Source: Ruditapes philippinarum (Eukaryota). Taken from it: a stretch of DNA of 64,000 nt. Both the position numbers and the translations under genes were made by a program. Positions 230-57,073 of this stretch are shown here, piece after piece (the first letter of the stretch is position 1; each line of letters opens with the position of its first letter). Below the pieces are notes generated by a model, which saw only the letters and a list, made by a program, of their open reading frames with translations, did no database searches and was not told where the DNA came from. The stretch spans positions 1-64,000 of the forward strand of contig NW_026866095.1 of the NCBI RefSeq assembly GCF_026571515.1. Reading direction: 5' to 3'.

Positions 230-6312
<6,083 letters not shown>

Positions 6313-7151: not shown

Positions 7152-7396
7152 CAAGGCATTGACTTGAAACTAAATGTATGTAAATATATAGTTAAGAGGG
7201 AAGGTGCATTGTCTAATAATAGTCTACAAGGCATTGACTTGAAACTTAATGTATGTAAATATATAGTTAAGAGGGAAGGTGCATTGTCTAATAATAGTCT
7301 ACAAGGCATTGACTTGAAACTTAATGTATGTAAATATATAGTTAAGAGGGAAGGTGCATTGTCTAATAATAGTCTACAAGGGAATTACTTGAAACT
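7152..7396. repeat. Minisatellite, about 3.2 x 75 bp, in the putative NVL 3' UTR
   Basis: Near-identical units caaggcattgacttgaaac...aataatagtcta start at 7152, 7227 and 7302, with a partial unit at 7377. Confidence 0.95.
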
Positions 7397-7570
7397 CGTG
7401 ATAAAGACATCTTAATTATTTTTTAGAAACCACATCATGTTTTTTGTAAAATGCCAACTTAGATACTCTAATTCAAGACTTTAAAGATTTTAAAACAAAA
7501 ACAAACTTTCAACAAACTAGCTTGTACAATTATTGACCAAGTCATTGTTTAATTTATTATTTTATGAAAC

Positions 7571-7606
7571 AATAAAAGATATTAGGAGATGTTTTGTTGT
7601 TTGTTG
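7571..7606 (+). terminator. Probable NVL polyadenylation signal
   Basis: AATAAA at 7571-7576 followed by a GT/T-rich element (gttttgttgtttgttg), about 1.26 kb after the stop codon. Confidence 0.5.
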
Positions 7607-7814
7607 CTTCAGAGAGTAGAGCCCCTTGGATGATGGTATAGAGTATATTTAAATCCTGTTAGTGAAGTTTACAAAGTGGCTATAGCTTTGTTATTTATGA
7701 AAGAATTGTCCTCATACATGAACACAATCCATGGGGATACACCTTCAAGTTGATGAGACTAACATTGATCTTTATTCATAAATGACCTTTACTTGCCAGG
7801 TCCAGTTATTGATA

Positions 7815-9191
7815 TTTTTTATGCCCCCCTTCGAAGAAGAGGGGGTATATTGTTTTGCTAATGTCGGTCTGTCTGTCTGTCGGTCTGTCCGTCGGTAGAC
7901 CACATGGTTTCCGCTGATTATCTTGAAAAGTGTTTTTCACAAAGTCTTCATATTTCACATAGTGATTGGTCATAACTAGTAGATGACCCCTATTGATTTT
8001 GGGGTCACTAGGTCAAAGGTCAAGGTCACAGGGACCTTAAATATCAAAATGGTTTCCGCTGATTATCTTGAAAAGTATGTATCAAAAAGTCTTCATATTT
8101 CACACAGTGATTTGTCATAACTAGTAGATGACCCCTATTGATTTTGGGGTCACTAGGTCAAAGGTCAAGGTCACAGGGGCCTTAAATGTCAAAATGGTTT
8201 CCGCTGATTATCTTGAAAAGTATGTATCTCAAAGTCTTCATATTTCACATAGTGATTGATCATCACTAGTAGATGACCCCTATTGATTTTGGGGTCACTA
8301 GGTCAAAGGTCAAGATCACAGGGACCTTAAAATGTCAAAATGGTTTCCGCTGATTATCTTGAAAAGTATTTATCACAAAGTCTTCATATTTCACATAGTG
8401 ATTGGTCATAACTAGTAGATGACCCCTATTGATTTTGGGGTCACTAGGTCAAAGGTCAAGGTCATAGGAGCCTTAAATGTCAAAATGGTTTCCGCTGATT
8501 ATCTTGAAAAGTGTGTATCACAAAGTCTTCATATTTCACACATTGATTGGTCATAACTACTAGATGTCCCCTATTGATTTTGGGGTCACTAGGTCAAAGG
8601 TCAAGGTCACAGGGACCTTAAAATGTCAAAATGGTTTCCGCTGATTATCTTGAAAAGTATGTATCACAAAGTCTTGATATTTCGCATAGTGATTGGTCAT
8701 AACTAGTAGATGACCCCTATTGATTTTGGGGTCACTAGGTCAAAGGTCAAGGTCACAGGGGCCTTGAATGTCAAAATGGTTTCCGCTGATTATCTTGAAA
8801 AGTATTCATCACAAAGTCTTCATATTTCACATAGTGATTTGCCATAACTAGTAGATGACCCCTATTGATTTTGGGGTCACTAGGTCAAAGGTCAAGGTCA
8901 CAGGGGCCTTAAATGTCAAAAGGGTTTCCGCTGATTATCTTGAAAAGTATTCATCACAAAGTCTTCATATTTCACTTAGTTATTGGTGATAAGTAGTAGA
9001 TGACTCCTATTGATTTAGGGGTCATTAGGTCAATGTCACATGGGCCTTAAATGTCAAAATGGTTTCTGTTGATTTTTCCATAATTGAACACTTCCATGTA
9101 CCCATTTTTGGCAAGTTTCTGTAATAAAATTACCAATTATGTGAGTCAATGGCTAGAAAGGGGGGTATATGTGTCGTTCGACATTCTTGTT
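7815..9191 (+). mobile_element. Helentron-associated non-autonomous element (HINE / pearl / DTC84-like) with a central tandem array
   Basis: T-rich insertion site; 5' subTIR atgccccccttc with adjacent palindrome; (GTCT/GTCC)n microsatellite; central repeat array; 3' subTIR gaaaggggggtat; terminal hairpin tgtcg-tt-cgaca; cttgtt end. Confidence 0.85.
7904..9068. repeat. Satellite-like array of 8 x 145-146 bp inside the HINE
   Basis: Units start at 7904, 8049, 8194, 8340, 8485, 8631, 8776 and 8921 (last one shortened), with a partial unit at 9059. Confidence 0.95.
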
Positions 9192-10642
9192 TCAAAATTT
9201 TTGATGTAACTGACTACAACTTTATTATTATACCTTCCAAATCGATCTCAGGAACCGGCAGATAAATTCACTTGAAATACAATAAATAATAAAATTATGC
9301 AATATCAGAATGCACTATATGTTTTAAGTTTGATTACTCTAATAGGTACTTTGACATAATTTAGTCCTTTATTCAAATAGGCTTCAAAAGACTAATTTTT
9401 CTTTTCATTAATTATCTCCCATCTTTTTCAACGAAAAAAAGGTTAGCAGATGATTATACTCTTTTTAGCAAGGCAGCTAATTGTAATTATTATTGGTACA
9501 CATTTGAATTATCATACAATATAGGCCCAGTTCAAATTTGACTTCAAACCGCGTAATTTTCAAGTAGTTAGGGTGGGGGTATACATTATCTTCAGTGATA
9601 GTTTCTTTAAGAAACACAATTTCTTAAAAGTCATCACATTGATCGGAACTGCCAGTAAAACCACACTGTCTGACTGTAACACCAATCATCTACTAGAATG
9701 GGAGCATGATGTTAGTATATTCTGTTGTTTTGAGCTTTACTGTCGTTACGATGAAACGGCCTTTTGTCGGGCTTTATTTTAGCTTTTTTTAAGGATTCTT
9801 TTCTGAAATATGACAATATGTTGAAATCTAATTAGGTAGTAAACGTATACTTGCCTGCCATAATAACATAACGGCAAACTTCTTTGCCTTCTGAATGACC
9901 TGCGACATAAAATGACGTCCGACATGATCTTGAGTTAATGTCAAATACAAAGTTCAGAAAATATTTCAGGACATGTAAGCTTTATGATATGATCGGGTTA
10001 TTTGTGTCTTAGTTAAGGAATCAAAACTTAATGCGATGTCTAGCCATCAACTTGGCGATAATAATCATCAAACAGAAAGAAAGTTACACACCCTAATTGT
10101 CTACCCTTACATTACAATGCCTTTATTCCCAGAATATTTTCCTATATATCGAGTTTTCTTTTTATTGCTCTTTATGGCATTTTGTAACAGACATTTGTAC
10201 TTGACATGTTACCATGATCCTGTCCGATGTAGAGGCAAGTTATCACGAATCTGTCCGCGACATTTGATTGGCTGGCCTACAAAATGTACGAGATTTGTCA
10301 ATATGGATTGTTCGTTGAAAACAGAATGCGATGTCGACAATAATCGTCAAAATTTTGACGTGTGCCGGTTTGCACAATTTTTGATTTTTTAAATAAAAAA
10401 TTAAAACGTTTTTTTTTTCTGTTAAATTTTCCGTGTTAGATATTTCGAGTGAATAAACTATACTAATTCTTACGCAAAAATGCAAATACATGTAGTTACA
10501 TTTTTAAATCGAGCTTTAGATATTTCAGTCGTAACATGAAATTTCCGATAATCTTTGGTGTAATATTAATTGTTTTCAAGATTTATGTCAGTTTATTCGA
10601 GACCAGACACTGTTGTATGTATAAATAATTGATACAAATATT

Positions 10643-10881
10643 TGAGCCGCGCCATGACAAAACCAACATAATGGGTTTGCGACCAGCATGGATCCAGACC
10701 AGCCTGCGCATCCGGGCAGTCTGATCAGGATCCATGCTGTTCGCTATCAGTTTCTCTACTTGTTATATAGGGTTTGTAAGCGAACCGCATGGATCCTGAT
10801 CAGTCTGCGCGGACGCGCAGGCTGGTCTGGATCCATGCTGGTCGCAAACCCATTATGTTGGTTTTGTCATGGCGCGGCTCA
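10643..10881. mobile_element. Palindromic MITE (family A)
   Basis: Long inverted arms tgagccgcgccatgacaaaaccaacataatgggtttgcgaccagcatggatccagaccagcctgcg / reverse complement. Other copies at 40533, 44067 and 56933. Confidence 0.9.
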
Positions 10882-11641
10882 TTTGTTATTTATTTAAGTT
10901 AATCCTTACGGAGTAGCAATCGATCTATTAGTTACGTATGTAGCGGAGTGCTTGCATGGTCATACACATGAATGCATACTTTTACAGAATGTTATTTTAG
11001 TGTTTTACATGTTAAAATATTCATTGTAGAAGCTTTCACAAAAGTAGTTTTAATGCATTATTTAAAATGAGTTTGTCGAGCAATAGATGTAAAAACTTAT
11101 AAAAAAAATTCTAGAATTCCGATTTCTAAATAAAGTTAAAAGCATGAGTCCGAGAGATGTGTCAAGATATCTTAGTCACGTGACGAACTTTAAAATACAA
11201 GGGCAAATTCTTCTAATACGAAGTGATTTAATATTTTGACAAAAAAGTCGACCAAATAACAGGAGTTGTCACGACCTGGTAACCTAGTAAAATTGAAATC
11301 AAGACCCCATGTTATACCAGTCTATTAACCAAAAACAATAAGATTGTTCGTTATTGGAGGGTTATAGTATATTGATTTCATGGTTTGTCTCAAGATTGCT
11401 TATTATTGAATAAGTTACTCTGTGACTAGTTAAACTAGTGCCTAATTACGCTGCACTGTACATATGTAATTAGTAATCTGATATATATATATATATATAT
11501 ATATATTCGTCGTATACGTCGTAATGTGTGTATTTTTAAAAGAAGTACGGAAATAAACCCCCAAATTGTATATATTGTTTTCATGCACTAGTATTTTTGT
11601 AAATTATCGTTGTGGTCTATTATGTCTGACGACAAACTTAA

Positions 11642-13811: not shown

Positions 13812-16800
13812 TCAAGTTGGATTTAAAGTTAAATCATCACGTTCGTCAGAGTTCAATCGTTCTTTTTTCCTGTCATACAGAATCATACACATTGCACTTA
13901 GGCTGAAAAGAGCTGATATAAGTGCACATACACAACCAAGGCAGCTGGCCACCAGCGAATATGGCGTCGAATACACTATATAACTATCCCATTGCCGTAG
14001 TATGTCCAATAAACGTCCTATTGGAATCATTAACAGTGCAGCTGTAAATAGAAAATAACTGATCAATCAATCAATCATTCGATCAATCAATATGTTTCAG
14101 CCACCCATTTGTAAAAATAGTAAACAGTTCGTGTTTTTGGTAAAACGACAACGCTTTCATACAACAATAACTCGGACCTTAGAATGATATATGAATATCA
14201 ACTCAATATATTTTCATAAAAACATGAATTTTTGAAAGGACGTTGAAAAACACCTATAAATTATCAGGAATTTAATCATTTGGATCATATATCGCTTTAT
14301 AAATAACTACTGGAGTAATGTTAGTATTTTACCAGCTATAAAACCTTATTTTAAAAAAATCCACCAGCGGTCTGCACCAATACATGCAGTCTGACCAGCC
14401 TCTATACTGTTGGAAGCTCAATTTTTATATGGCATGCCTCCAATTTTGACCGATTTACTCCAAATATAGAGTTGCGCAAATCCATTATGTAAACTCAGCA
14501 GAGTCAGATGGGGAAAAACTGGTCATCATGATATCTCCAATGTAAATAAACCCCCTGCTGACTCGACATAAAATACTAAATCTTGTTCAGTGCATGATCA
14601 CTTAATTTGTAACATTTACATTTTTTAAAGAGATCGTTGACTTTAAGCTGATTAGTTTCAGATTATCTCAATAGTTCAACAAACTTACAACGTTAATACT
14701 TGTAAATTACCTACATAACATCATACTAAAAGTAAAGTCAAACAATTATCTTTGTGACAATGATCTGATAGGATCTTATTTAAAGTGTGACCTAGAACAT
14801 AACACATAACCCTTAATTTTATTTACAAAAGTTAAAGGTACACGCCTCCAAATTTTCAGCAGATAACAGTAACATAAATGATAATAATAACGATGTATAT
14901 AACATCAGAAAAAACGTTGTATTAAATAAAAGTGTAAATATTTAGCATAAACACCATGCGTTTTTAAAACTACGTTGTTTATAAACCATACATAATGATC
15001 GTCAAATAAACCTATTTTCTAATCATTAACTTACCGGAAATGACTGATGCGAGAGCTGCCCAGCCAAGGTAAGATTTCGGACTGTGTGACATGTGTATGA
15101 ACCCATTCACCGTCAGTAAAACACCAGCAATACACAAAACAAATGCCAGCGTTACCTCAACTTGTAACTCTACCCAGTTTGTAAAATCAACTGAAAATGA
15201 ACAGAACAAATGAAATGTTTGCATAACCGTGTCAGTGCCTGACTCGCCCCTCAACGCTGTGCGTTCGAGTCCCGCCAAGGACCTTTGAATATTTCAGGAA
15301 AAGAAACTATCCAGCTAGCTTACGGTATATCGGTGGTCCGCTTGTGACTGAAATAATGCACGGAGAGTCACCTGAGGTTTTCCTCGACCAGTATAGCTGG
15401 GGAAGTCTCAATGTAACCATAACATAGTCATTAAGCATTAAAATAAACTAAAAAAAGTCGTTTACATAATTATATGTAAATACTTGCATAATACAGACTT
15501 AATAAGTAAGACACTTGGCAAATTTGTATGCAATGAGTGATGTGCATATAAACACCCGTATTGAAGATATCTTCAAATACGTTATGAAAGCATTGAATTA
15601 CTATAATGAATAAGGCTGCGTTCATATGAAATGATTGAATATATTAATCGATTTTAGTGATTTTACATCGACAAAGGCTTAGAGGGATAATCTTTATCTG
15701 ATATATAAGGCAAATAAGTCAAATCTACATACGTCACGTTTTATCTCTCTTTTCTCTCCAGCTCACATTAGTTACTATTTTAAATTTTTATTTGCCTATC
15801 GACTCATCGTATCTCATGAAAGCCTAGGCTGTCTTATAATTATAAAACCGAACGTTGTTATGTTCAAATAGCAGAATATTGAGTCAACATTTCTTTATAC
15901 AATGTGCACTCATGAATATATTATGTGGAAGCATCCGTTCATGAATTCAACTAAATATGATGTCAATGTGTCTTTATATGATGTCAATCTATCATGATAC
16001 GATGTGCATTTTTGAATATATTATGTGGAACCATCCTTATATAAGATCAATATAACAATATATTATGTCAATCTGTCCTTATATGATGTCAGTCTGTTAT
16101 TATATGATGTGAAGTTATGAATATATTATATGAAATAATTCTTATACTCGTATAGAGTCAATAATATATGATGTCAATGTCTCCTTATATTATATCAATC
16201 TATCATTATACGATGTGCTTTTTTCAGTATATTATGTTAAACCATCCTTATATAGAGTTAAAATACAATGTACCAGTATATTGTGCCGAATCATCCTTAA
16301 ATAGAGTCAACATAACAATGTATGATGTCAATATGTTACTATATGATGCCAATCTTTCATTATACATGTGCATTTATAAACATACCATGTCGAACCATTC
16401 TTATGAAGAGTCAACTTAACAATATAATTATGATGTAAATGTGTCCTTATAATTATGATGTAAATCTTTCATTGTATGATGTGCATTTATAAATATACTA
16501 TGTCGGACATTCTTATATAGGGTCAACATAACAATATATGATGTCAATGTGACCTTATATGATGTCAATCCTTCATTATATGATGTGCATTTATGAATAT
16601 ATAATGTTGATCATAGTGTTGATTATATAGAGTCATAATAACAGTATATTATGTCAGTATGTCCTTATATGATGAGAGTTTTTCATTATATGATGTGCAT
16701 TTACGAATATATAATGTGGGACCATTCTTATATATAGAGTTAGAATAACATTAATTATGTAGAATTGTCTTTATTTACTTAACAATATATGATGTCAATG

Positions 16801-18172
16801 TGTCCTTGTATGATGTCAATCTTTCATTATACGATGTGCATTTATGAATATATTATATGGATCCTTCCTTAAATGGAGTCAGAATAGTAATAATTATTAT
16901 ATATTATGTCAATCTGTCGTTAAAAATGCAAAATCATATCATGATAGATTGACATCATATATATTGGCCGATTATATTGTTAAATTAAATACATATAAAG
17001 ATGTTTCCAAAAAAACATTTATAAGTCCGCATGGTATAATGAAAGATTGACATAATATATTGATAAGTTGACACTATATAATAATGCTCCCACGTGATAT
17101 ATTCATAAACAAGCCGTCCGGTTAGCTCAATAGGTAGAGCGTTGGACTGTGAATTATGAACCCGGGTTCGATTCCCGGACGGCGCAGGTCACTTTCGTTG
17201 TAATTGAAATCCTTTCTACGGTCATTCGCACCGTACCTCTGCTCTGGCATGTACAAGGCAACTAGTACTCATAAACTGCTTGTCAGCCTGCCCAGGAACG
17301 ATGCGATGTTTGATCTGTGCTCTGGCGAATTCAATGTGGCTTACTGTTGTGATCCGGAGTGAAAACTACCACCACCACCATCACATATATTCATAAATGC
17401 ACATCGTATTTAAGAATAGATTGAAAGATTGACATAAGATATTGATTAAGTTGACACTATTGAGGCTACCACATAATATATATTCATAAAGTATTCATAA
17501 ATCCACATCGTATAAATAATAGGTCGACATCATATAAAGACACATTGACATCATAATTATATTGTTCAGTTGAATTCAAATATGGATCTTTCCACATAAT
17601 ATATTCATGAGTGCACATAGTGACATAACAACGTTCTTTTTTTATAATCATAAGACAGTCAAGGCCTTCCATAATATTTTGTAATTCAATGCGTTTGAAG
17701 TAATACAATGAAAACAAAACCCAAAGTCGACCCAAATATCTCAATGTATATCGTCAATGGTTGTAATTTAAACAACAGTATTTAAGTATGCTTTATCATT
17801 CGATGACCCTCCAAATGGATAAAATTTCAAGTTCACTGCAGGGTCACTCTTCGTCATGTAATTAAAGTTGGTATGTTTTATATATTTAACAAAATAAAAC
17901 TTACTTTTCGTATCACCGGCAACGTTGAATGGATTCACGACCCTCGTCATAGATGCCGTGCGGCATTGTGGAGAGTTATTGCACACCTGGATATACCAGA
18001 CCCCGGCACTCACTGTAAACCCCGACGGTTGCGACAGAACAATCCACCCTGGAGTCACAAATCCGATAAATTGCAATAATAATGCTAGGCCACTAGTTGA
18101 AACTGAAGTAATCAGAATAGTTCTGTACCAGAAATGTCCGTCTACTCTAGAACGTTGTCGTGTTAGAGGCAT
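13812..18172 (-). CDS. Claudin/PMP22/EMP-like four-transmembrane protein, about 217 aa. Exons 18172-17905, 15190-15035, 14041-13812.
   Basis: TM1 followed by TPGW...GVW-YIQVC-NNSPQC (claudin-superfamily ECL1 W-GLW-C-C signature), then TM2, TM3, PYS motif, TM4 and a charged tail. Both introns are phase 1 GT-AG and join into one open frame. Confidence 0.85.
15250..15425 (+). mobile_element. tRNA-derived SINE, family S1 (resembles molluscan RUDI/V-SINE), degenerate copy
   Basis: B-box gttcgagtccc followed by ctatccagctagcttacgg...gaaataatgcacgga...cacctgagg core shared with other copies in the window. Confidence 0.7.
15814..17674. mobile_element. Foldback-like element with inverted arms built of about 105-110 bp degenerate tandem subrepeats
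   Basis: 15814-15960 is the reverse complement of 17550-17674. Subrepeats (tatgatgtcaat...gatgtgcatttatgaatatat) run forward over 15900-16920 and reversed over 16935-17620. Confidence 0.75.
17113..17380 (+). mobile_element. tRNA-derived SINE, family S2, with (ACC)n tail; inserted in the foldback element
   Basis: A-box tagctcaataggtagagc, B-box ggttcgattcc, body tttctacggtcattcgc..., tail actaccaccaccacca. Second copy at 48961-49206. Confidence 0.85.
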
Positions 18173-23666: not shown

Positions 23667-26600
23667 TTAGTTCGTAACTGCGGTTTTCTGTTTGTTTGCA
23701 AAATTCCTGAGAATATCTCTGATTCTCCCAGAGTGCTTTGTAGATTTTGCCTCCTGAAAAATTATGTTATTTTTGCTCCTTTTATTTGTGTTATGCATGC
23801 ATAATTGTTTTTCTCCTAATTAATATATGTAGTAGAAATGCGTACCTTAAATATTATTATAATATTTTGTGAAAGTTATATTTTCTACAAAGACAATAGT
23901 TTCCTTGCAAGGATACAAAGAAATAATAAAATGAATTTGATCTCGTCAACTGAGACAATTTGTATATATATACCTCAATCTTTTCCCCTTTATCGCAAGA
24001 AGATGGCGGTGTGAACACTGATCTATCTTTTATTCCAGTGGTAAAGTCATATATATCTGCCACAGTTATGTCGACATTCTTGTTGCTGTCAAACACGTAC
24101 GAGTCGGACACTGACATTCTAACTGGGGTACATTCACCGTTATCATTATCTAGAGAAGGAGATGTTGACATTTTGATATTTAAACAAGTGTGATAACTCG
24201 GCAAACATCTTCAATGGAGCCGTAACAAACACGAAATATACCTTATATTATATATTATATTGCAACTATAATTTTGTTTAAACTGATATATTGAAATTTA
24301 AGACAAAAATTTATTTCATGTTAATACTAAACTAGAGATTCGCATGTCGGAGCATTTAATGCCCGAAGTATGTGGTGTCGTAAGATGAGCAGTATTAAAA
24401 TGAGAGAGGACACGATGGGAAAAATGTAAAATAAAAAAGATTTTACACTTAGTGTCAGTGTGCCCTTAACATTGTGACCTCAAAACCATAGGGGTTATCA
24501 ATTGCTATGGCTGTTGTCCTACCAAGTTAAACAACCTAGGCTTATTTCATCTCAAGTTGTTGATATGGTAAGGATTGTGTCAGTGTGACCTTTGATCTTT
24601 TGACTTCAATATTGATATCAAGTTAATCTGCTGGCCAAAGATAATATATCTTAGAATGTTTCACAAACTTTATATTCCGTCTCAAGGTATTGGTCGTCAA
24701 GGATTTTACTCAGTGCCACTGTGACCTTGAACTTTATCTTAATTAACAAATTTAGGTCAATTCTTTCCAAAGACAAAGTGCTATTGTGCGGACAATGATT
24801 TTACATTACATTAAGTATCCCTGTGACATTGACCTTTGATGCTATGGGCCAGGTTTTACTGTGACCAAGAACTTTGACCTAACGAACTAAAATCAATAAG
24901 GGTCATCTACTGGCAAGGCAATGACCAGTCTCTCTCCTAAGTATGAAGACAACACACCAAAAAGGTTTTAAGGTGTTCAACGGATATCGTTGTAACTACC
25001 AACAGACAGACGGACAGACAAGCGCCATATCATGGTACATGTACTAAGTATCTTTCAGGGGTATAAAATGGACTTAAAATGACGTCATCATTATTATGTG
25101 AGTGTCGTCGAGAAAAGTAATGTTAAAAGTGTAAAATTCAAGATAAAAACACATGTGCCTAAAGTGCAAATTTTGAAAAGCGACATTCTGTAGAGCAATA
25201 TTCATCACATCTTGATAATTTTTTCTCAACTTAAGACTTCACAATAAAGTTTACCTAAAGCAGCACCTCGCCGTGACAATCAAAGCGTTTGTTTCTCAAA
25301 GCAGTGGTTGTATTAAATTTACCTATTTACAATAAAATTTTGTACCTGACATGATGACTGTCACAGTTATTTCATATGGGTCCAGGTAAATACGGTCATG
25401 GAACATGAATGTCTTCATGGCCTGTCCGGTTTGTGCAAACATTCCTTCACTGATTAATGTAGCATTACCTGAAATGAGTTCATCAAAACAATCATAGAAC
25501 GATTCTACAGGTAGCTTACAATAAATACTGTACACTGTATAGAAATTTTAAAGGGTAACAAATTTTGCCATGATTCGAGTGCGCCAAACTGGACTTTTTC
25601 TGCTCAAAATGTGTAAATAAATGTACACTTGTCGGATCATTCTGATGTGTCACATTTTCATAATCATAATGTAACATTGTAATTAGAATCTGTCAATTTT
25701 ACTGTATAATTATGTATGTTATCAATAATAAATTATCATCATTACATTATTCTTGTACATTTGTATATGCTCTCATTATATACTTTGTTTATGCTCTGTA
25801 ACACCGCACTTTGGGGTCAAACCCCAAAGTGCGTTAAACTTCGCACCGCACTTTGGGGTCCAACGCACTTTGGGGTCAAAATCGAGAAATTGACCCCAAA
25901 GTGCGTTAATATGCTACATATCAACGCACTTTGGGTTCCAGAGGTCTAAAGGTGTCATCTGAGTTCTGCTTAAATACTGAGTACTGACTTATTTTCGATC
26001 TGCGACATTGAAATATTTGAGGTGGAGTTCAAGATGGCGGTCAATACTTTGATGATGCTTAAGTGATAAAAGTTTCATTAATTTTACCACTTGAAATATC
26101 TAAAAATTGTGTTCATATAACAAAATTACGGTGGCATAAAAGTGACATTTGCATTTTTTTTTTAGTTTTGCATACATATTTTTTTTGAGTTTTGCATTTT
26201 TAGTTTTGCATTCATATTTTATTTTAGTTTTTCGTACATATTTTATTTTTGTTTTTCGTACATATTTTAGCCAATCAAAACAGCCTTCACATCTCATAAC
26301 AGCCCATAGTTGAGTATAAAACTAGCACAGTGGTTTGGTCACATTTCGGCCCATTTTTGGAATCGGCCCAGTCGTTTTCGGCCGGGCAAGTCTGGTTTCG
26401 GCCGACCCTTTTCGGCCCATTTTTTAAATTATATGTATTTTATATAATTATTGTTTTTTTATTATTATATACTATTATATTAGTGTCTATTTGGAAAGGG
26501 CTGTTGATTGGTGATCAGTTATTATTCCATGAATATGCACCACTCAACCCCACCCCCTGAGAATAACGGGGAGAGGGGCATTGACTTTAAACCAAGCCGA

Positions 26601-29600
26601 CCACTGGTAAAATCTTAGCCCTACGGAGGATACTCAGATAATAACATTCCTGCCTTATGCCCCGGAACAGCGCAAACATCAAAACACGGTTATTTTTTTA
26701 ACCCCCACTCCCCTGGGGGCGAGAAAGGTGGTTACAAATGACTGGTGTATTACAATAATGCACAATAAAAGATCTAACTAGGTCCTTATATTCCATTGAT
26801 TTAGAAAAAATGCTTAAAGGTTTGAAGGATTAGCACATCCAGATAATTGGCAGAACTTATATGCCAGGTGTGCCGGCTCAAGGTCGGGGTCACACCTATA
26901 GGTCAAAGGATTAAGACTTTGAGTTTCATGTCCGCTCCTTATCTCCTAAACCCAATGAAGGATTTTCATGCACCTTGTGTCAAATGTTAACCACATCAAG
27001 ATCATATGCAGAACCTTTCTTTGGGTTACCGCGGACTATATATATATACAGTCGGCATCGTACTTGCGGCCACCTTTATTAAGCGACTTTTTTATTAAGC
27101 GGCCGCATAAAATCCCTCCCGATGATTTTTACTATTTAATTTAATTCCATTAAACGACTATTTTATATCGCGGCCAGCGGCCACTGAATGTCGGCCCAAA
27201 TGTACAAAATTAACTGTTAAAGTATCTATTAAACGGCCGTGACAAACAATCGTCCCTGCGGGCATTCTCACCTGTGTAATTAGCGAGTAGGTTAGATGTG
27301 TACAAGCAAACAAACAAATAATTTTCATGGTCATTGGTCACAAATAATTGTCGTTTAAAAACGAAATGAATAACAATTGCAATCGTTTCAAAATCGGATT
27401 TTCCGATCGTAATATTTATTGTGACATATTTTGTCAGAGCAATAACGTATCACAACACCGCGTTTGCATAGTTTTGTCACCTGCTGAGAGTGACCTCCCT
27501 GTATATATACACTAGAAAGTGTTGTTATTTTTTTGATTACTCCAAAAATGAAAATGTTGGTATTTGCAAATGGCAAATGGGGTACTGTAATTTACAGATG
27601 GCAAAGTGTTTGAAAATGGTGTTTTACAAATGGCGTAATTATCCAAACCTCTACTTAGCAAATGTATGGAAGCCTTGGAGGGTCACTTTTGAGTTTCGAC
27701 TTATATATTTATTTTACTATTTTCTTATGACTTTTGATTTATGACTTTTGATTTATGACTTTTGATTTTTGACTTATGGGTTTTGTTACTGTCCCACGTG
27801 CTTGTCTCATTATTTCCAAGGAAAATATGGCAGAATATGACAACGATTCAGACGAGGTAAGTTCATTTACCTAAGTTTCTTGGAGACTTATTTAAAAACA
27901 AAATATGTGGGTACATATGCAAGGACAGATGTTATTCTTATATAAGCCTTTTTAATTGATTAAGAAATTTTAAAGAAAATATTTTGCTTGCATTGCATTG
28001 CATTTGGTATCCATTCTTTATTTTGATTTCCGGAACAGGGATATATAATCTCAAATTGACATACAGCGTATGAATCAAACGCTTTATTTTTTTATATAGG
28101 TTCCAGTTTTAAATCCAAATCAGTATCGCATTGTTGTTTGCTGCAGTTTCAATCGGTTTCCACCCGTAGTTCATTCTTCGTCCATCTTATATTGATTATG
28201 GACCAAATTATAGGCCCTATTTTGACAAAGAAATTTGTAATTAAGAAGTTTCATGAAACATGGTATTTCAAAAACAGCTTTGAAACTTCACACACTTCAG
28301 ACACTTAAGTAAGAAACCTCTGTCAGTCTGAATTGCATTGTTATCAAAGTATGCCTCTTTTTCGACTTTGAATTTGTTGTTTAGAATTTTCATGAAAAAT
28401 GGTTTCGAAAAAACTATTTTAGCGATTCCTTTGAAACTTAAAACACATATTAATTGTGACATCTAAGGTCAATGATCAAGTTTCGTATGAGTGGCTCACA
28501 ATTTGACATACTTATGCCCATTTTTAAAGCTTAAATGTTTTGTCAGAAGGTTTATGAAATATGGTCCCATAAACAAGTTATGATATAATATTGAAACTTT
28601 ATTATTCACTTGTTCAATATCAATAACTTAGGACACCTACCAAGTACAAAGTACATGTTATTTGTATAATTATAAACTTTTGAATACAATTATGTATTAA
28701 GGGATTTTTTGTATTTCATTTTGTATATATATTTATTTCATTTCAATTGATATAACACATACTTTTAATGCTTTCAATTTAAATTCTAGTAAAGCTACAT
28801 GTAGGGATTAATGACGTGATGTCGAATGCTTTCAACCACAAAGCAGTTGCAAGAGCATCAGCAATACATATTTGTCAAGTTTTCGGAGCCAGTTTAGAAG
28901 ACTAAGAGGTTTCATTGCAAAACAGCGTTCGTTCCGAGTGGAAAGTAGTACAGTTTAGAAAATGCAAAATGTCCAAACACTGGTGATTTGGTTTTCTTCG
29001 TTATTGTCTATGGAAATATTCAGACATTTTCGGAATACGAGGGTTATCCTTTTCACACTTGTTTCAGACGCTCGACAACCCCACCATTTATTGTGGACGC
29101 TTATTGGAAACACACAATGTCACGTATCGCCACGTTTATTTTATACTGTCCATATCTCCAATATGGTATAAAACTTGTATCGATAGACAGGTCATCGTGA
29201 GACAAAGAAAGGTGTGAAAAATCATGAATTCACAATTCTGGCTTTCATAATTTTCAGTATTTGCCCATTGTAAATTAAAAAAAACTTATATGAAAGGTAT
29301 CGAAATCAAACTTTGTTTGTTCATATAGCTCGGCGAGGCAGTAAGAAACATACTTCTTAGCTATCATAAATTTTAGAAAGTCTTGTTTTTTATTGTTTTT
29401 TTATCTCAAAAACTGTTGAAGGCATCAACTAGAATTTACTGGCAGATATATCTCGGCCAGACAGAGTGCATTGTGTTGTTAACAAAACTTTTGATTATAA
29501 CATTAAATCGTTCTCCTAAGTTAAAAATTCCCTTTTTCGACATGGACATGCCGTGGGTTGGGGGTATGCTCATTACGAAAGACCATGAAATTTCCATTAC

Positions 29601-35600: not shown

Positions 35601-38600
35601 CCAGGATTTCTTAAAGTAACAGCATAGTTATCTATAAAATATTATTTGTTATAAATCGAGTAATATTTTCTTTGACCATATAATAGTCACGTGGGTTGGC
35701 TACATAGTAGAGGTGTTAAAATATAATTGAAATACACCCTTTGTTAGCCATTGAAATAGTATTTTATGTATAAAGGATTTTCAAAAATGGTTATTATTCA
35801 GAGCGGGCGCTATGGTGCAGTGGTAACACTGTCTGCCTACAAATCAAGGGGTCGTGAGTTCGATCCCCCGCTACTCCACTGAACGAATAAATGACTGCAA
35901 GACTGACAAAACCAGAACATAGAAACAGAATGACGGCAACGATAGAAAAAAGAGAAGACCTTAACGGAACAGGAAACAAGTACCGAAAATACAAGACCGA
36001 AGACGACGACCGATAACAGAAGGAAGAACAGAGACAAGGACCGCTAACAGAAGAAGAGAGACAGAGACCAATAACAGAAGAACTGACAACAAGCGAACAG
36101 AGACGAGGATTGATAACAGAAGAACAGAGACAGGGACCGATAACAGAAGAACTGACAACAAGCGAACAGAGACGAGGACTGATGACAGAAGAGCAGGGAC
36201 AGGGATCGATAACAGAGACGGAAACCGATTACAAAACAGGACAGGGAGTGATAACACAGACGAGGATTGATAACAAATCAATACAGACGAGAACTGAGAA
36301 CTGAGACTTATGAAGAACGAAGATCACGACCAATAACAGAAGAACTGACAACAGGAGAACTGCGAAGAGGACCGATAACAGAAGAACGAAGACGACGACC
36401 GATAACAGAAGAACTGACAACAAGAGAACTGCGTAGACGACCGATAACAGAAGAACTGCGACGAGGACTAATAACAGAAAAACGAAAGTCACGACCAATA
36501 ACAGAAGAACTGACAGCAGAGAAATGCGACACAAGAATAAAAGTCACGACCAATAACAGAAGATCTGACAGCAGAGAAATGCGACGAGGACTAATAACAG
36601 AAAAACGAAAGTCACGACCAATAACAGAAGATCTGACAATAAGAGAACTGCGACGAGAACCGATAACAGAAGAACGAAGACGACGACCGATCAGAAAAAC
36701 GAACACCAAAACCCAAGAGTGGGTTTATAATGTATATTTTGCATGCACACGTTTTAACCTCCTCATACATAATTACGCTGTGCAAAATAAGTAGGCATCT
36801 GAGTAGCCACTCTAATGCTTGCATAGAGTGTCAGATAAAATCTAGCAGATAGGACAGGAAAGAGTGTAGTGTTCGCTGCGTAAATATGTTTAAATTAAAT
36901 TTTCAGTACTATCTTTAATATTACTTCTATATTACTATTATATTAGCCTATAGAAAAATGTCTGCCATCTTGGATTTTTCGCCCATATTGGATTTTTTTT
37001 TAAATTATGTTTTGGTGTCTAATTTGTTTTTACCTAAACATACTTTGTGACAAATTTCAGACTTTTCCTTTCCTTAAAAATTTATTTGAAAAATTATCCA
37101 TTTATGATAAAGAAATTTGGCGGCCATTTTAGTGGTCATTTTAAATGGACATTTCAATGGTCAAGATCAAGTTTTTCAATTAGGTATCCAACTTTATCGG
37201 ATTAAGCATACCTTAAATAGGTCAAATACATCAAGATACCGCTTGTACTACAAAATGCCTCTAGCATCTTATAGAGAGCCAAATTTTCAAAATCAGTCCT
37301 GTCTATTAAGTGTTTTTTTCTCAATTGTTAAAATATACAACAAAATTAGTCATTGATGCTAAATGCAAATGTGCCTCGATCACAATTATAACTTTGTACT
37401 TGTGTGTATGAACATAGCACTTGCTGTTCATTATGAAATTGGTTAGCACTATCTTAGTACTTCAAAGAAATACTGATTCTGTGTTAGCTAAATAAAATTC
37501 TGAATTGCGATACATGTTTAATACTGTGAACCATGCCATTTTAAGACGTAAAACTTGTATTCCCTATCTACTTGTAAAACAGTTATTTGTTTGTTACTCA
37601 TGGACAGATTTTGTGATGAGGACAAAAATGTGTAAGCACTAATATAATGAACATATTTAGAACATAGAAGCTTGTACAAAACACACAGTCACACTTGTAG
37701 AATTAAAGTCTGATATATTACCACTATGGTATTATATCAAATAACATTAATTCCCTCCTTAACACATCATCTCCTCCATGACAACTCTCAATGAAATTAT
37801 TTAAAACGTTTAAAAAACATACCTGAAACCAAAGTTGCTGCTTTCATCTTCTAAAAAACGTGTAAAATGGGTTAGCCAAAAGTCATAAGACGTAAGTCAC
37901 AAATCAAGAGTCAAAAGTCGAAAGTCAAAAGTAAAATATCCGTAAGTCGAAACTCAAAAGTGACCCTCCAAGGCTTCCATACAAATGATCATGTACAAAT
38001 ATGTACAAAAAAACTAAAATAAATATGCATGCAAAACTAAAAAAATATGTATGCAAAACTAAAAAAATAAGTATGTATTCAAAAATATGTACGACAAACA
38101 AAAAACAAAACAAAAATATGTACGAAAAAAAAAGTATCAAAAAAATTGATTGCAAATGTCACTTTTATGCCATCGTTCGAAATACTCTAGTACAGAAATT
38201 GTGTATTCCTAAAATTAAAAGATGCTGCGAAAAATATCCCGTACTGTTAGTCATTTACTTGATAACTTTTGGTGCCATATTGAGCCCCATTTTAAATATG
38301 TTGGGAATGAAATAAAATGCAGTTAATATTTTTTCCCGAAGAACTATAAATATACTCTATTTCAATGTTCTGGTGAAACATCAAGTTTTTCGATCGGACT
38401 TTAAATAGTGATTTTTACAAATACATTATTAAGCTTATCAACACAAGCTTAAGGTTTTTGTAAGCTCCGTAACAACCGTTCGCTAGAGGCTTTTAATGGG
38501 AAATCTTACATACTCCTTTAGACTGAGCAAACATGAATTTTAAAATGTTAAAATAATGGTATCAGAGAAATGTAAGATGCTTGTTACCTGAATAAAATAG

Positions 38601-41600
38601 CGTTAAATGTGAAATTATTTGTCAAAAAAGTAGTCAAAACAATGTAGTATTTGATTTCCATATAAAATACTAATTCACTATAACTGTACTCAGCATTGCC
38701 AAAAAGCAACAGATGAAAAAGATGGTTCAGGTAATTGGCCAATGTGTATTTTTTGGATAATATAGAAGAACACTAAAATAAAAAAAGCTTTTAAGAAAAA
38801 CAAATAAAAGCATAATAGGCCTTTAAAACGTTATTTTTAACCCTTGGGGATCGATACCCACAATCTCCTCTATACCCCAGTGAGAATTTTACATTATTCT
38901 GAAGCTCCGCTCTAAATGTGCGACTACTTCATTAGTTGATATTTTAAGTACTGCCTGTACGGACTAACTACTTAAAGCCGCATCTACACCTAGTCAAGTT
39001 TCTTATGTATTTAGCTAAATAAATGGCTATTTCAAACATATTATCGGGCACATTTTTACTGAAATGTCTTACTAAGATTACCCAGAATTTATACCCTTGT
39101 ATATGCTAAGACTTTCATATTTCTATAAAATGTGTAAATAAAAAAGGGAAATGATGCATTTAACTAAAAAACAATGGAGTTAATGAAAGGTGTACATTCT
39201 TTTAAAATAAAAGGAAAATTTGAGAAAAAAATATTTAAAGTCTGAATAATTGATACAAAATCTTTATTTGGTGATTTATTTGGTGAAAGTTCTTCACTTA
39301 CTAAACATGACCATTTTAAATCCTACTGATTCTACTATAATTCGGGGCACATGTTTTGCGTCTATTTAATACCTTGAATTTTGTTTACCATTGGCGTTGA
39401 CTACAATATATTATTTAAAACATAATGAACATTAATTTTCTCTGACCCCAAAGTGCGGTCGTTTGCCTGATGTTAAAAAATGCATATGTACCTGTTTAAC
39501 GCACTTTGGGGTCGAAATTGGACCCCACATTGCGTAACGCACTCTGGGGTCGGACCCCAAAGTGCGTTTGACCCCAAAGTGCGGTGTTACAATGCTCTTT
39601 TTCCATACTTTATATATCCTGTCATTATATACTTTTATGCTCTCATGACATACTATGTATATGCTCTCATTACATACTTTTTACATGATGCTTTCATCAC
39701 ATACTTTGTATGCATGCAAATGTAAACTATTATTGTTTAATCAATATGCGACTTTGAACCGCTTCTCCTCACTCCAACCAGGGACTTTGTTCCTTTTCTT
39801 GTGAGGAAGCTATCCAGCCAGCTTACAGAACATCAGTGGTTTTACACAAGTGCCCGCGCGTGCCTGATACATTGCACGGAGGTGCACTTGCCAATAAAAC
39901 TATGTTATGCTATGATTAACAAAAAACTGTTGAAATATTTGCTACAAAGATGAGATAAATCGTCTAATATAAACACCTAGCTAATGAGCTTGTGACGTTA
40001 AAAGGTGCAAAACATCTAACGATCGATTGATTACTGACTTCAAAAAGCATTACAGATGGAAGATACAGCGCCTAGTCATTGTCATAATGAGTGCGTTCAT
40101 AGTAAATCCATTGGCTACCATTGGTAGGTTTATTTACCATTAGCACATCAATGGTACAAATGTTTACGGACAAAATTTGCCTTTTGTAGATTGATTTGCA
40201 GACGGACTAATTCTGCAAGTCTTACTTATGACGTCATTCATGTATGAAAATTAATTGATCATATAAGGCTGAAATAATATTACACATTTACAAAATGTAA
40301 AAAAGTGCAGATTTGCAAATTAACAAGTTATTTATCTTTTTTTTTGGATAAAATTCATTTATAACAATTCAGATTACAATAAAAACTGGACCGTACTTAA
40401 ATAGGACCAAATTATTATCAAGGTCAGGTGTCATTGTTGCAATAGGTTCACCTTTGGCAGCAATGTTTATTATATTGTCAATTACAATTAAAAATCCGTC
40501 CGGAGTAAATTTTCAACCAGTGGTACCAATATATGAGCCGCGTCACGACAAAACCAACATAGTGCGTTTGCGACCAGCATGGATTCAGATCAGCCTGCGC
40601 CTGCTACTTGGATTTTTTTTTTTAAATTATGTTTTGGTGTCTAATTTGTTTTTACCTAAACATACTTTGTGACAAATTTCAGATTTTTCCTTTCCTTAAA
40701 AATTTATTTGATATATCATCCATTTATGATAAAGAAATTTGGCGGCCATTTTAGTGGTCATTTTAAATGGACATTTCAATGGTCAAGATCAAGTTTTTCA
40801 ATTAGGTATCCAACTTTATCGGATTAAGCATACCTTAAATAGGTCAAATACATCAAGATACCGCTTGTACTACAAAATGCCTCTAGCATCTTATAGAGAG
40901 CCAAATTTTCAAAATCAGTCCTGTCTATTAAGTGTTTTTTTCTCAATTGTTAAAATATACAACAAAATTAGACATTGATGCTAAATGCAAATGTGCCTCG
41001 ATCACAATTATAACTTTGTACTTGTGTGTATGAACATAGCACTTGCTGTTCATTATGAAATTGGTTAACACTATCTAAGTACTTCAAAGAAATACTGATT
41101 CTGTGTTAGCTAAATAAAATGTTGAATTGCGATACTGTGCACCATGCCATTTTAAGACGTAAAACTTGTATTCCCTGTCTACTTGTAAAACAGTTCTTTG
41201 TTTGTTACTCATGGACAGATTTTGTGATGAGGACAAAAAATGTGTAAGCACTAATATAATGAACATATTTAGAACAAATCAGATTGTACAAAACACACAG
41301 TCACACTTGTAGAATTAAAGTCTGATATATAACCACTATGGGATTATATCAAATAACATTAATTCACTCCTTAACACATCATCTCCTCCATGACAAATCT
41401 CAATGAAATTATTTAAAACGTTTAAAAAACATACCTGAAACCAAAGTTGCTGCTTTCAGCTTCTAAAAAACGTGTAAAATGGGTTAGCCAAAAGTCATAA
41501 GACGTAAGTCACAAATCAAAAGTCAAAAGTCGAAAGTCAAAAGTAAAATATCCGTAAGTCGAAACTCAAAAGTGACCCTCCAAGGCTTCCATACAAATGA

Positions 41601-44600
41601 TCATGTACAAATATGTACAAAAAAAAACTAAAATAAATATGCATGCAAAACTAAAAAAATATGTATGCAAAACTAAAAAAATAAGTATGTATTCAAAAAT
41701 ATGTACGACAAACAAAAAACAAAACAAAAAATATGTACGAAAAAAAAAGTATCAAAAAAATTGATTGCAAATGTCACTTTTATGCCATCGTTCGAAATAC
41801 TCTAGTACAGAAATTGTGTATTCCTAAAATTAAAAGATGCTGCGAAAAATATCCCGTACTGTTAGTCATTTACTTGATAACTTTTGGTGCCATATTGAGC
41901 CCCATTTTAAATGTGTTGGGAATGAAATAAAATGCAGTTAATATTTTTTCCCGAAGAACTATAAATATACTCTATTTCAATGTTCTGGTGAAACATCAAG
42001 TTTTTCGATCGGACTATAAATAGTGATTTTTACAAATACATTATTAAGCTTATCAACACAAGCTTAAGGTTTTTGTAAGCTCCGTAACAACCGTTCGCTA
42101 GAGGCTTTTTAATGGGAAATCTTACATACTCCTTTAGACTGAGCAAACATGAATTTTAAAATGTTAAAATAATGGTATCAGAGAAATGTAAGATGCTTGT
42201 TACCTGAATAAAATAGCGTTAAATGTGAAATTATTTGTCAAAAAAGTAGTCAAAACAATGTAGTATTTGATTTCCATATAAAATACTAATTCACTATAAC
42301 TGTACTCAGCATTGCCAAAAAGCAACAGATGAAAAAGATGGTTCAGGTAATTGGCCAATGTGTATTTTTTGGATAATATAGAAGAACACTAAAATAAAAA
42401 AAGCTTTTAAGAAAAACAAATAAAAGCATAATAGGCCTTTAAAACGTTATTTTTAACCCTTGGGGATCGATACCCCACAATCTCCTCTATACCCCCAGTG
42501 AGAATTTTACATTATTCTGAAGCTCCGCTCTAAATGTGCGACTACTTCATTAGTTGATATTTTAAGTACTGCCTGTACGGACTACTACTTAAAGCCGCAT
42601 CTACACCTTGTCAAGTTTCTTATGTATTTAGCTAAATAAATGGCTATTTCAACATATTATCGGGCACATTTTTACTGAAATGTCTTACTAAGATTACCCA
42701 GAATTTATACCCTTGTCTATGCCAAGACTTTCATATTTCTATAAAATGTGTAAATAAAAAAAGGGAAAATGATGCATTTAGCTAAAAACAATGGAGTTAA
42801 TGAAAGGTGTACATTCTTTTAAAATAAAAGGAAAATTTGAGAAAAAAATATTTAAAGCTGAATAATTGATACAAAATCTTTATTTGGTGATTTATTTGGT
42901 GAAAGTTCTTCACTTACTAATCATGACCATTTAAATCCCTACTGATTCTACTATAATTCGGGGCACATGTTTTGCGTCTATTTAATACCTTGAATTTTGT
43001 TTACCATTGGCGTTGACTACAATATATTATTTAAAACATATTGAACATTAATTTTCTCTGACCCCAAAGTGCGGTCGTTTGCCTGATGTTAAAAAATGCA
43101 TATGTACCTGTTTAACGCACTTTGGGGTCGAAATTGGACCCCACATTGCGTAACGCACTCTGGGGTCGGACCCCAAAGTGCGTTTGACCCCAAAGTGCGG
43201 TGTTACAATGCTCTTTTTCCATACTTTGTATATCCTGTCATTATATACTTTTATGCTCTCATGACATACTATGTGTATGCTCTCATTACATACTTTTTAC
43301 ATGATGCTTTCATCACATACTTTGTATGCATGCAAATGTAAACTATTATTGTTTAATCAATATGCGACTTCGAACCGCTTCTCCTCACCTCAACCAGGGA
43401 CTTTGTTCCTTTTCTTGTAAGGAAGCTATCCAGCCAGCTTACAGAACATCAGTGGTTTTACACAGGTGCCCGCGCGTGCCTGATACATTGCACGGAGGTG
43501 CACTTGCCAATAAAACTATGTTATGCTATGATTAACAAAAAAACTGTTGAAATATTTGCTACAAAGATGAGATAAATTGTCTAATATAAACACCTAGCTA
43601 ATGAGCTTGTGACGTTAAAAGGTGCAAAACATCTAACGATCGATTGAATACTGACTTCAAAAAGCATTACAGATGGAAGATACAGCGCCTAGTCATTGTC
43701 ATAATGGGTGCGTTCATAGTAAATCCATTGGCTACCATTGGTAGGTTTATTTACCATAAGCACATCAATGGTACAATTGTTTACGGACAAAATTTGCCTT
43801 TTGTAGATTGATTTGCAGACGGGCTAATTCTGCAAGTCTTACTTATGACGTCATTCATGTATGAAAATTAATTGATCATATAAGGCTGAAATAATATTAC
43901 ACATTTACAGATTACAATAAAAACTGGACCGTACTTAGGACCAAATTATTATCAAGGTCAGGTGGCATTGTTGCAATAGGTTCACCTTTGGCAGCAATGT
44001 TTATTATATTGTCAATTACAATTAAAAATCCGTCCGGAGTAAATTTTCAACCAGTGGTACCAATATATGAGCCGCGTCACGACAAAACCAACATTGTGCG
44101 TTTGCGACCAGCATGGATTCAGATCAGCCTGCGCATCCGCGCAGTCTGATCAGGATCATGCTGTTCGCTTACCAACTCTATTACAAGTAGAGAAACTGAT
44201 AGCGAACAGCATGGATCCTGATCAGACTGCGCCGATGCACAGGCTGGTCTGGATATATGCTGGTCGCAAACACATTACGTTGGTATTTGTCATGACGCGG
44301 CCCATATGATACTTTAAGTTACCAATAGTAATTTAGTACCACTGTGAATACTCTGAACGCTTTCATTACACTTAGAAAACCTTTGTTCATTTAATTATTG
44401 AATATTTAAATAGTAAATTAGTGAGATATAAGAATTGTGAAATTATGAAATAAAATGATATGGCATTGTCAGATATAAATATATATTTAGCTAACCGGGT
44501 ATACATTCCTGATATAACGGCAATCCTACGTCAAGTTTATCACACGACCCATCTGCATACACACGCCATTGTTTATTCTAAAAATTGCAGAAAAATGAAA

Positions 44601-56186: not shown

Positions 56187-56932
56187 AATATCAACACATT
56201 TGAGCCGTTGGTGCTCCTTTTTTCCGTAATTCAAGTTATGTAATGCTTAGTTTAAACATACTTCCTTAAAAAATACATTGCATGAGTACAAGTAAGGACT
56301 GGGCAGAAAGCCACAAACTCTTATAATTGCAATCTCCTATATATCTACTAAATTATTACAAGTTCATCTAGATATTAAAATGTGTTATACTTGATTGTAA
56401 ACTCGTATCAATAACAATAATACTTATAAAATAAATATCGCTTGCTGTATAAAAAAAAACTTTTTAAATGTTGTTTTTCAATAGAAAAGGGAACCGTGCA
56501 TTTTTCTTTCATGACTAATGAATTCATATACTAGCGAAAATTGTATCAAAATAACGCTAGTTTTTATCTCTTAAAAATGCTTGAGTTTCAGTGATGTGTT
56601 TACATTTCTCTCACTTAGTCATCACTATTTTTGTAGCAGATGATAATCAGAAAAAATCAACCTCTTTTTGAAAAGTCACAGATAGATACAAAGCCACGGA
56701 ATCTCAGTTTGGCGTGTTTAAACAGCAATTTTGTTCATTATCTACATAATTATAAAATACAAAGAATTACATAGACAAAGAAATATAACCAATTTTCAAC
56801 ACCATCAAATTAATAATTTTTTTTTTCTGGGGACATGGAATTAGAAAATGACGCCTACACCCTAAGATTCTTTATGAAACAGATAAGATGTAATCCGTGG
56901 CCGTATAAGTAATAACGTTGACTTCAAGTAAT

Positions 56933-57073
56933 ATGATCCGCGTCACGACAAAACCAACATAATGGGTTTGCGAACAGCATGGATCCTGATCAGACTTGCG
57001 CGGATGCGCAGGCTTGTCTGGATCCATGCTGGTCGCAAACGCACTATGCTGGTTTTGTCGTGACGCGGCTCAT
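56933..57073. mobile_element. Palindromic MITE family A, internally deleted
   Basis: Arms are retained and the central spacer is absent, giving a near-complete 140-bp hairpin. Confidence 0.88.

Follow-up and report, generated by a model that had tools for sequence, protein, structure and literature searches.

An AGGTCA-type box shared by the core repeats of a bivalve HINE and dissimilar element families

The core repeats of a non-autonomous Helentron (HINE) in a 64,000-nucleotide stretch of the Ruditapes philippinarum genome (hereafter the window) carry a box of AGGTCA half-sites that has been kept, spacers included, across dissimilar non-coding families. The element belongs to a well-described kind and is otherwise an ordinary HINE; the box it carries is not ordinary. 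We consider it highly probable that the box is under constraint at the level of the element, and we lean towards a nuclear receptor as its predicted binder. The fuller reading, that the box would be a conserved cis site kept for the element's copying, probably by way of host receptors, rather than for regulation of the neighbouring gene NVL, is in our judgement evenly balanced. Bivalve HINE arrays have already been published (PMC7492417, PMC8268682, PMC3879986, PMC5139131), and low-variability core segments and Helitron-borne factor sites with shown function (PMC6927752) are likewise known. What published accounts, cited here for portions of their text, appear not to report is the depth of the constraint on the box: the literature covered, outside which lie the original pearl and BIV160 reports and consensus figures, gave no reading of the box as a receptor site, nor of its spread. 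An earlier description is possible.

Anatomy of the element and its array

The original prediction had assigned the array to a Helentron-type element, and the anatomy read from the sequence bears this out: the element is 1.37 kb in all and almost certainly a HINE, and the array is its core (Table 1). It displays features that define the group (PMC4067079, PMC7492417): subTIRs of 11-15 bp at both ends, a 5′ hairpin (-8.4 kcal/mol, z -3.9; equally stable in 1/200 shuffles), a GTCY-type microsatellite ahead of the central tandem repeats, and an interspersed, high-copy occurrence, with the left module at roughly 12,000-13,000x single-copy depth in runs X5 and X6. The 5′ subTIR plus T7819 is the 12-nt subTIR listed for oyster Cg_HINE_8. 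The 3′ palindrome has a 5-bp stem at the expected place and the stability of shuffled sequence (z 0.04, 91/200 shuffles as stable). T runs are present at both junctions, no target-site duplication was seen, and read depth rises ~15-fold from bin 7801-7823 to bin 7824-7846 in all three DNA runs. No empty allele was found among the read rows listed, which cover the left junction alone, and the left-end 19-mer returned 0 matches in viral contigs.

Table 1 Coordinates of features in the window.
Feature	Position	Strand	Remarks
Inferred last coding exon of NVL	6262..6312	+	inferred stop at 6312
AATAAA signals	6946 and 7571		
T-run, left junction	7815..7820	+	Helentron target; no target-site duplication seen
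5′ subTIR TATGCCCCCCTT	7820..7831	+	
Partial inverted repeat	7837..7848	+	pairs with 5′ subTIR (hairpin)
GTCY-type microsatellite, left module	7862..7894	+	precedes central tandem repeats
Core-repeat array	7904..9074	+	8 units of 145-146 bp; unit 8 degenerate
ATATTTCA	7950..7957	+	in every unit; degenerate counterpart of AAAYTTGG-type block of other families
AGGTCA box, unit 1	7984..8029	+	everted half-site (7-bp hairpin stem), then DR2, DR1, DR0
Core 20-mer of unit-1 box	8010-8029	+	
Box repeats	8129, 8274, 8420, 8565, 8711, 8856	+	box partly deleted in unit 8
3′ subTIR AAGGGGGGTATA	9158..9169	+	complementary to 5′ subTIR at 11/12
3′ palindrome TGTCG-TT-CGACA	9172..9183	+	weak
Inferred 3′ end TTCTTGTTT	9184..9192	+	running into T
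Older related HINE	24329..25068	-	own left module and microsatellite; four decayed core units ~140-145 bp apart

The array lies where it had been predicted (7904-9074, period 145, 8.1 copies, 92% matches). Units 1-7 differ from one another at just 5-11 positions: the array is young. An assembly artefact was rejected on the strength of these differences and of the abundance of the family in three independent DNA studies. The composite motif that had been ascribed to most units, TGACCC-n12-GGGTCA-CT-AGGTCA-A-AGGTCA-AGGTCA, is complete in 5/8 units and incomplete in the other 3; DR2 with its CT spacer and DR1 each occur in 7/8 units, and DR0 and TCAAGGTCA in 6/8. About five RGGTCA half-sites had been proposed for each unit, and the counts are 5, 5, 4, 5, 4, 5, 5 and 2. 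Chance was rejected as the source of this cluster. When a single unit was shuffled 20,000 times with its dinucleotides kept, five half-sites were reached in 0 cases; since all eight units are copies, the result counts as one event, not eight. Across the window RGGTCA occurs 92 times versus 34 expected, and outside the array 57 times versus 33. Inside the box 3/46 array columns are variable, versus 20/100 outside it (Fisher p 0.049); in unit 8 the box is more damaged than the remainder (76% vs 89% alike). Units fold no better than shuffles (z -1.2, -0.4), and a 7-bp stem is present in each.

Persistence of the box had also been claimed for two older sites in the window. The older related HINE retains it in part: it is homologous to the element, and its boxes are 61-80% like those of the array, versus 40-52% for the rest, but they are decayed, with one perfect repeat left (the DR0 AGTTCA-AGGTCA) and no perfect DR1 or DR2. 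At 26878-26910 the claim fails, as the AGGTCA half-sites are differently arranged there and form no perfect DR0-DR5 pair; this segment gave no alignment to the element in sensitive blastn. The stretch at 26840-27020 is a remnant of another repeat with AGGTCA half-sites, for which no ends were found and which we take to be pearl-like.

The box in reads, metagenomes and viruses

Three DNA runs (one from each of three studies) were aligned, together with RNA run X22, to 7410-8099 at 80% likeness; runs X18-X21, with small or zero word share, were left out. Depth is maximal at 7985-8030 in 4/4 runs. The box bins (7985-8030) are 25-57x deeper than the left module (4/4 runs) and 21-31x deeper than bin 7916-7938, an excess of 11x once reads on a second copy of the 7916-7938 part are added. 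In X5 and X6 the box reaches ~410,000-fold single-copy depth. Depth summed over contigs does not count copies, and this figure and that of the left module are taken as orders of magnitude. Most aligned RNA reads (93%) extend into unlike sequence. From the loose ends, several other families adjoin the edges of the box, in some cases with AAACTTGG at precisely the ATATTTCA position; loose ends also lie at 7962/7963, near the ATATTTCA block. Among the 40 of 130 variants listed, none falls within 7975-8031. The original prediction had named its own test, namely that the box be more conserved than the unit flanks across copies, and it was passed in this and other genomes. In X22, 119,698 of 12.9 million RNA reads (0.9%) match 7410-8099 at 80%; the matches fall on both strands equally and almost entirely on the box.

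The core 20-mer is present in ~52,000 metagenome stretches, an estimate from 1/64 parts scanned, and 121 loci were fetched. They are almost all non-coding: the first 80 of the 121 loci supplied the 140 longest frames, 2 of which gave Pfam matches (a piece of an ABC transporter and a dynein exon). The metagenome loci form 62 sequence clusters. Box identity is inflated, because the box itself served to choose the foreign loci and to define the array units; the spacer-2 half-site, the AAAHTTKD block and the GTCY tract were not among the features searched for. A perfect half-site stands at spacer 2 in 41/119 loci and at spacer 1 in 7 (background 0.002 per position), and the spacer-2 DR2 is found in 19 of the clusters. 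The AAAHTTKD block lies at -75..-40 in 49/116 loci (background 3.4%) and at exactly -60 in 24/116 foreign loci; in other families the AAAYTTGG-type block is likewise 60 bp upstream of the core 20-mer. An upstream GTCY tract accompanies 37/116 loci versus 2 and 5 of 111 controls. Further half-sites in foreign loci number 244 on the same strand and 60 on the opposite one, and an everted half-site is found in just 16/116. Of 14 loci printed at length, most have HINE-type left hairpins, with subTIRs that differ; the termini of box-bearing elements are completely different from one another.

Searches of GTDB returned 49 loci with the 20-mer, most of them AT-rich eukaryote-type contigs inside bins; about ten single matches in apparently genuine bacterial DNA were set aside as chance. 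Some loci have complete HINE anatomy (L194, L202, L249). In seven eukaryote-type arrays, identity outside/inside the box is 0.67/0.90, 0.72/0.90, 0.61/0.96, 0.74/0.98, 0.86/0.91, 0.93/1.00 and 0.63/1.00. The usual box spacing is ~147 bp; it falls within 140-159 bp in 51/64 intervals of bin arrays and in 20/53 of metagenome loci. Locus L222 contains eight successive exact boxes in units ~61% alike elsewhere, which the definition of units by their box is hard put to explain. In L222 and L200, two unit types alternate that have little in common beyond the box and the -60 block. Imperfect boxes (n=50 and 21) have spacers conserved as strongly as half-sites, and a mismatch spectrum without clear fit to receptor tolerance. 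A helical-phase test on 38 non-independent spacings gave p about 0.05 at 10.5 bp.

As to hosts, bin G004 includes an intron-bearing Arp2-like gene whose product is 88% identical to a stony-coral protein, and an element with boxes 145 bp apart, which we infer to be coral DNA. Its contigs C457 and C613 (L249, L250) carry whole HINEs of ~895 and 824 bp head-to-tail, the pattern expected from rolling-circle copying. Eukaryotic DNA is plentiful in this 12-Mb bin, which gave 113 reverse-transcriptase matches. Bin G001 (L239, L240), assigned to a bacterial species, contains two divergent eukaryotic 18S genes, both of which scored best as general eukaryotic SSU; no actin was found in it. The eukaryote behind the arrays of G001-G003, the largest foreign set, may be non-animal. 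A Helitron_like_N domain, which would mark an autonomous partner, was not found in five eukaryote-contaminated bins.

Viral matches to the 20-mer in IMG/VR are confined to three related 6-kb contigs, at both ends of each; one of the three carries a densovirus NS3 gene. The 20-mer belongs to a group of 9 half-sites and lies ~45 bp inside the terminal hairpin, and the match counts as one independent event. Densovirus-type terminal repeats (L001-L006, L283-L284) have 9-12 same-strand RGGTCA half-sites beside TGACGTCA, a short way in from the terminal hairpin. In a 208-kb virus that has a VLTF3-like gene and is presumably iridovirus-like, a 17-mer of the 20-mer is repeated in tandem between genes; at L024 590-800, between its kinase and VLTF3-like genes, intergenic 44-50-bp tandem repeats read TGACCT-TGAA-AGGTCA-A-AGGTCA-AGGTCG. 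Single viral matches number 12 loci for the box 17-mer and 6 and 31 for control 17-mers. Runs of AGGTCAN occur at 82 viral loci versus 45 for a control heptamer; most are pure heptamer tracts in GC-rich contigs of presumably prokaryotic viruses, which means that no receptor is needed for such runs to arise. A 3.6-kb viral contig that we take to be anellovirus-like has three DR1-spaced AGGTCA near TGACGTCA (L315 400-440), and a GC-rich end.

Candidate binders and rival readings of the box

Nuclear receptors are present in oysters and are, to our knowledge, metazoan-specific. The DR2 with CT spacer had been called a Rev-erb/E75-type site. The repeat itself is there, in the 7/8 units given above, but specificity for Rev-erb/E75 was rejected: the base before the first half-site is G, with the flank TTTTG before GGGTCA, and the DR2 spacer is AA in 35/42 foreign loci. 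RORE/RevDR2 sites have an A/T-rich 5′ extension, with a T needed directly before the first half-site. The SF-1/FTZ-F1/ERR monomer site that had been predicted is matched by TCAAGGTCA, which we take to be the consensus for these receptors and which, with AAAGGTCA, presumably makes overlapping receptor monomer sites. A unit of 145-147 bp leaves no linker beyond the nucleosome core, whose length is 147. The predicted DR1 also holds: AGGTCA-n-AGGTCA is a canonical RXR/COUP-TF/HNF4-type site, and RXR, COUP-TF2 and HNF4 are documented to bind DR1 (PMC3384313).

That the box is kept across dissimilar non-coding families points to selection at the level of the element, and hence to a box that likely binds a protein aiding copying; selection on the element itself explains the conservation more simply than a benefit to the host. 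The box would help the element itself get copied and would be kept for that reason: copies with an intact box would spread more than copies without one, the selection acting on the element and not on the host. More tentatively, the binder may be a host receptor of the COUP-TF/TR2-4/RXR/HNF4 or ERR/FTZ-F1/NR4A type, which is favoured both by termini that change while the box stays and by the close box variants in animal viruses. Overlapping DR1, TCAAGGTCA and AAAGGTCA sites would account for the conserved spacers. A bound receptor could then open chromatin or recruit repair factors, as COUP-TFII/TR4 do on GGGTCA repeats in the case of repair factors (PMC6785246), after which RepHel supplied in trans would nick and copy the element. 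Any effect on genes of the host would be incidental to the scattering of roughly 10^5 boxes.

The box could instead be an iteron-like site for the Helentron RepHel, or for another non-receptor protein, its receptor likeness being coincidental. Its orientation is fixed, as is its distance from the left end and the -60 block, its half-sites favour one strand (244 vs 60), its spacers are conserved, and its densovirus copy sits ~45 bp inside a terminal hairpin; HUH origins typically have short direct repeats close to a hairpin. We nonetheless think this rather unlikely, since most oyster HINE clusters are without the box and a close variant occurs in the large DNA virus with a VLTF3-like gene, a group that we do not know to use HUH Rep. 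The box is, moreover, constant while the subTIRs, which define Helentron families (PMC4067079), differ.

Distinctly unlikely is an origin of the box as an inherited promoter or enhancer of ancestral autonomous Helentrons, through which receptors drove RepHel transcription and which was amplified in non-autonomous derivatives, with little current function. The position just inside the left end agrees with it, as do the densovirus and L315 clusters that adjoin TGACGTCA in non-coding DNA, and the same has been proposed for the heat-shock elements of Caenorhabditis Helitrons (PMC6927752). However, the eight exact boxes of L222, in non-coding units ~61% alike, need ongoing selection or conversion, and the box decays in dead copies only.

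Arrays that serve the host as receptor platforms (enhancer, silencer or sink), with that of the window acting on NVL, would make use of perfect DR1, DR0 and TCAAGGTCA sites at high density; Helitron-borne HSF-1 sites do alter nearby gene expression (PMC6927752), and 0.9% of X22 reads match the aligned stretch. This role, which the original prediction had put forward, found no support and is very improbable: conservation tracks the element and not the locus, the older boxes in the window have decayed, the insertion is young and its family numbers roughly 10^4 left ends, and the nearby poly(A) site is without RNA support. A slippage-born micro-repeat or hairpin, acting as a recombination or conversion hotspot that needs no protein, is hardly credible: AGGTCAN runs do arise in presumably prokaryotic viruses, every unit has its 7-bp stem, and in DTC84 and CvA a palindromic or microsatellite-like segment close to the end of the core is conserved (PMC3879986), but the irregular 8-7-6 spacing recurs unchanged in the 62 sequence clusters and in distant hosts, which sets it apart from pure heptamer runs, just 16/116 loci have the hairpin half, and unit folding is that of shuffles.

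If the box is indeed a docking site for host receptors, one could picture, speculatively and with more doubt than belief, a major animal Helentron lineage that has carried a fixed DR2-DR1-DR0 dock at ~147-bp intervals in its transposition origin since before the cnidarian-bilaterian split. The host-factor requirement would have been reinvented in densovirus terminal repeats, and ~10^5 docks in marine invertebrate genomes would tie transposon activity and receptor availability to hormone/organotin signalling.

HINE core repeats are commonly regarded as passengers. An internal box of 20-28 bp that persists among families with dissimilar ends offers a direct way into what Helentrons need in cis beyond their termini. 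If RepHel binds it, the box would be the first internal Helentron origin element. If receptors do, hundreds of thousands of perfect RXR/COUP-TF/ERR-type sites would affect molluscan ChIP and motif enrichment, and would be relevant to how RXR-targeting pollutants act. In prokaryote bins, the box also serves as a marker of contaminating host DNA.

Known systems and the surroundings of NVL

The Cg_HINE elements of Crassostrea gigas (PMC7492417) resemble that of the window in their left module with subTIR, IR and GTCY tract, their short tandem array, and their 3′ subTIR, palindrome and T-rich target; ends and core are combined differently. Cg_HINE_6 (CL6; Repbase Helitron-N18_CGi) has a 146-147-bp repeat, similar in length and, by eye, in block order, with GGTCAAGGTCA. 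It is without DR1/DR2 (0 matches for GGTCAAAGGTCA in the oyster table). As 870/871 matches to the exact GGTCAAGGTCA 11-mer in that table fall in CL6, 12/13 successful oyster HINE clusters are essentially without the box. Judged by these counts, the box is evidently not required for all HINEs. The covered portion of the Cg_HINE account (PMC7492417) does not discuss receptor sites. In the pearl (CvA/CvE/CvG), DTC84 and BIV160/Cg170 families (PMC3879986, PMC5139131), compared here by description alone, core repeats likewise have low-variability segments: one lies near the core end and is palindromic or microsatellite-like, and the segments are read there as rearrangement or CENP-B-like signals. 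DINE-1/HINE of Drosophila and mites have the same defining HINE structure (PMC4067079).

Helitrons of Caenorhabditis are a further case of a rolling-circle transposon spreading a dense host-factor motif, the heat-shock element, for which binding and gene effects have been shown within one genus (PMC6927752). The window box, unlike that motif, spans much deeper lineages and is known here from sequence alone. Single HNF4/DR sites have reportedly been found in Alu, a retrotransposon. Tandem GGGTCA variant repeats in ALT telomeres are bound by the NR2-class receptors COUP-TFII/TR4, which promotes repair-linked copying of DNA; unlike the box, these are pure DR0 runs in human cancer telomeres, and no conserved composite in a DNA transposon (PMC6785246). 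Terminal repeats of lepidopteran ambidensoviruses contain the exact 20-mer (three contigs) and a one-strand half-site cluster by the rolling-hairpin origin; the comparison covers the box and its half-site cluster, and convergence or chance may account for the likeness. The covered portion of the JcDV paper (PMC5978394) is silent on terminal repeats, and a receptor element of proposed viral origin is described in PMC10995137.

The upstream gene had been named as NVL, with which the best PDB match of one exon agrees (E 7e-16). The array had been placed about 250 bp past the NVL poly(A) signal: the AATAAA at 7571 is indeed 243 bp before the element, but its use as an NVL poly(A) site is not supported, because X22 depth is near zero there (0 at 7410-7478 and <5 through 7662, in one individual, which may differ, and with NVL exons outside the aligned stretch). 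A location of the element in the NVL 3′ UTR was rejected, the suggested link between array and NVL is unsupported, and we regard a role of the array on NVL as most improbable.

Other repeats surround the gene and the element. Downstream of the NVL stop, a tandem repeat with a 75-bp unit occupies 7152-7396 (3.3 copies, 97% matches). The fragment at 7663-7820, which adjoins the element on its left, is moderately repeated, at tens to a few hundred times single-copy depth; X5 and X6 contigs end at 7696-7697. A 3.3-kb tandem duplication of 97.8% identity (36988-40292 and 40608-43909) is either recent or an uncollapsed haplotype. Palindromic MITE- or foldback-like elements are found at 16786-17080 and 56931-57075, and one is present twice, at 10630-10901 and 44055-44321. 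Nested 21/110-bp repeats occupy 15883-17621, and a 27/69-bp purine-rich repeat region lies at 35979-36709.
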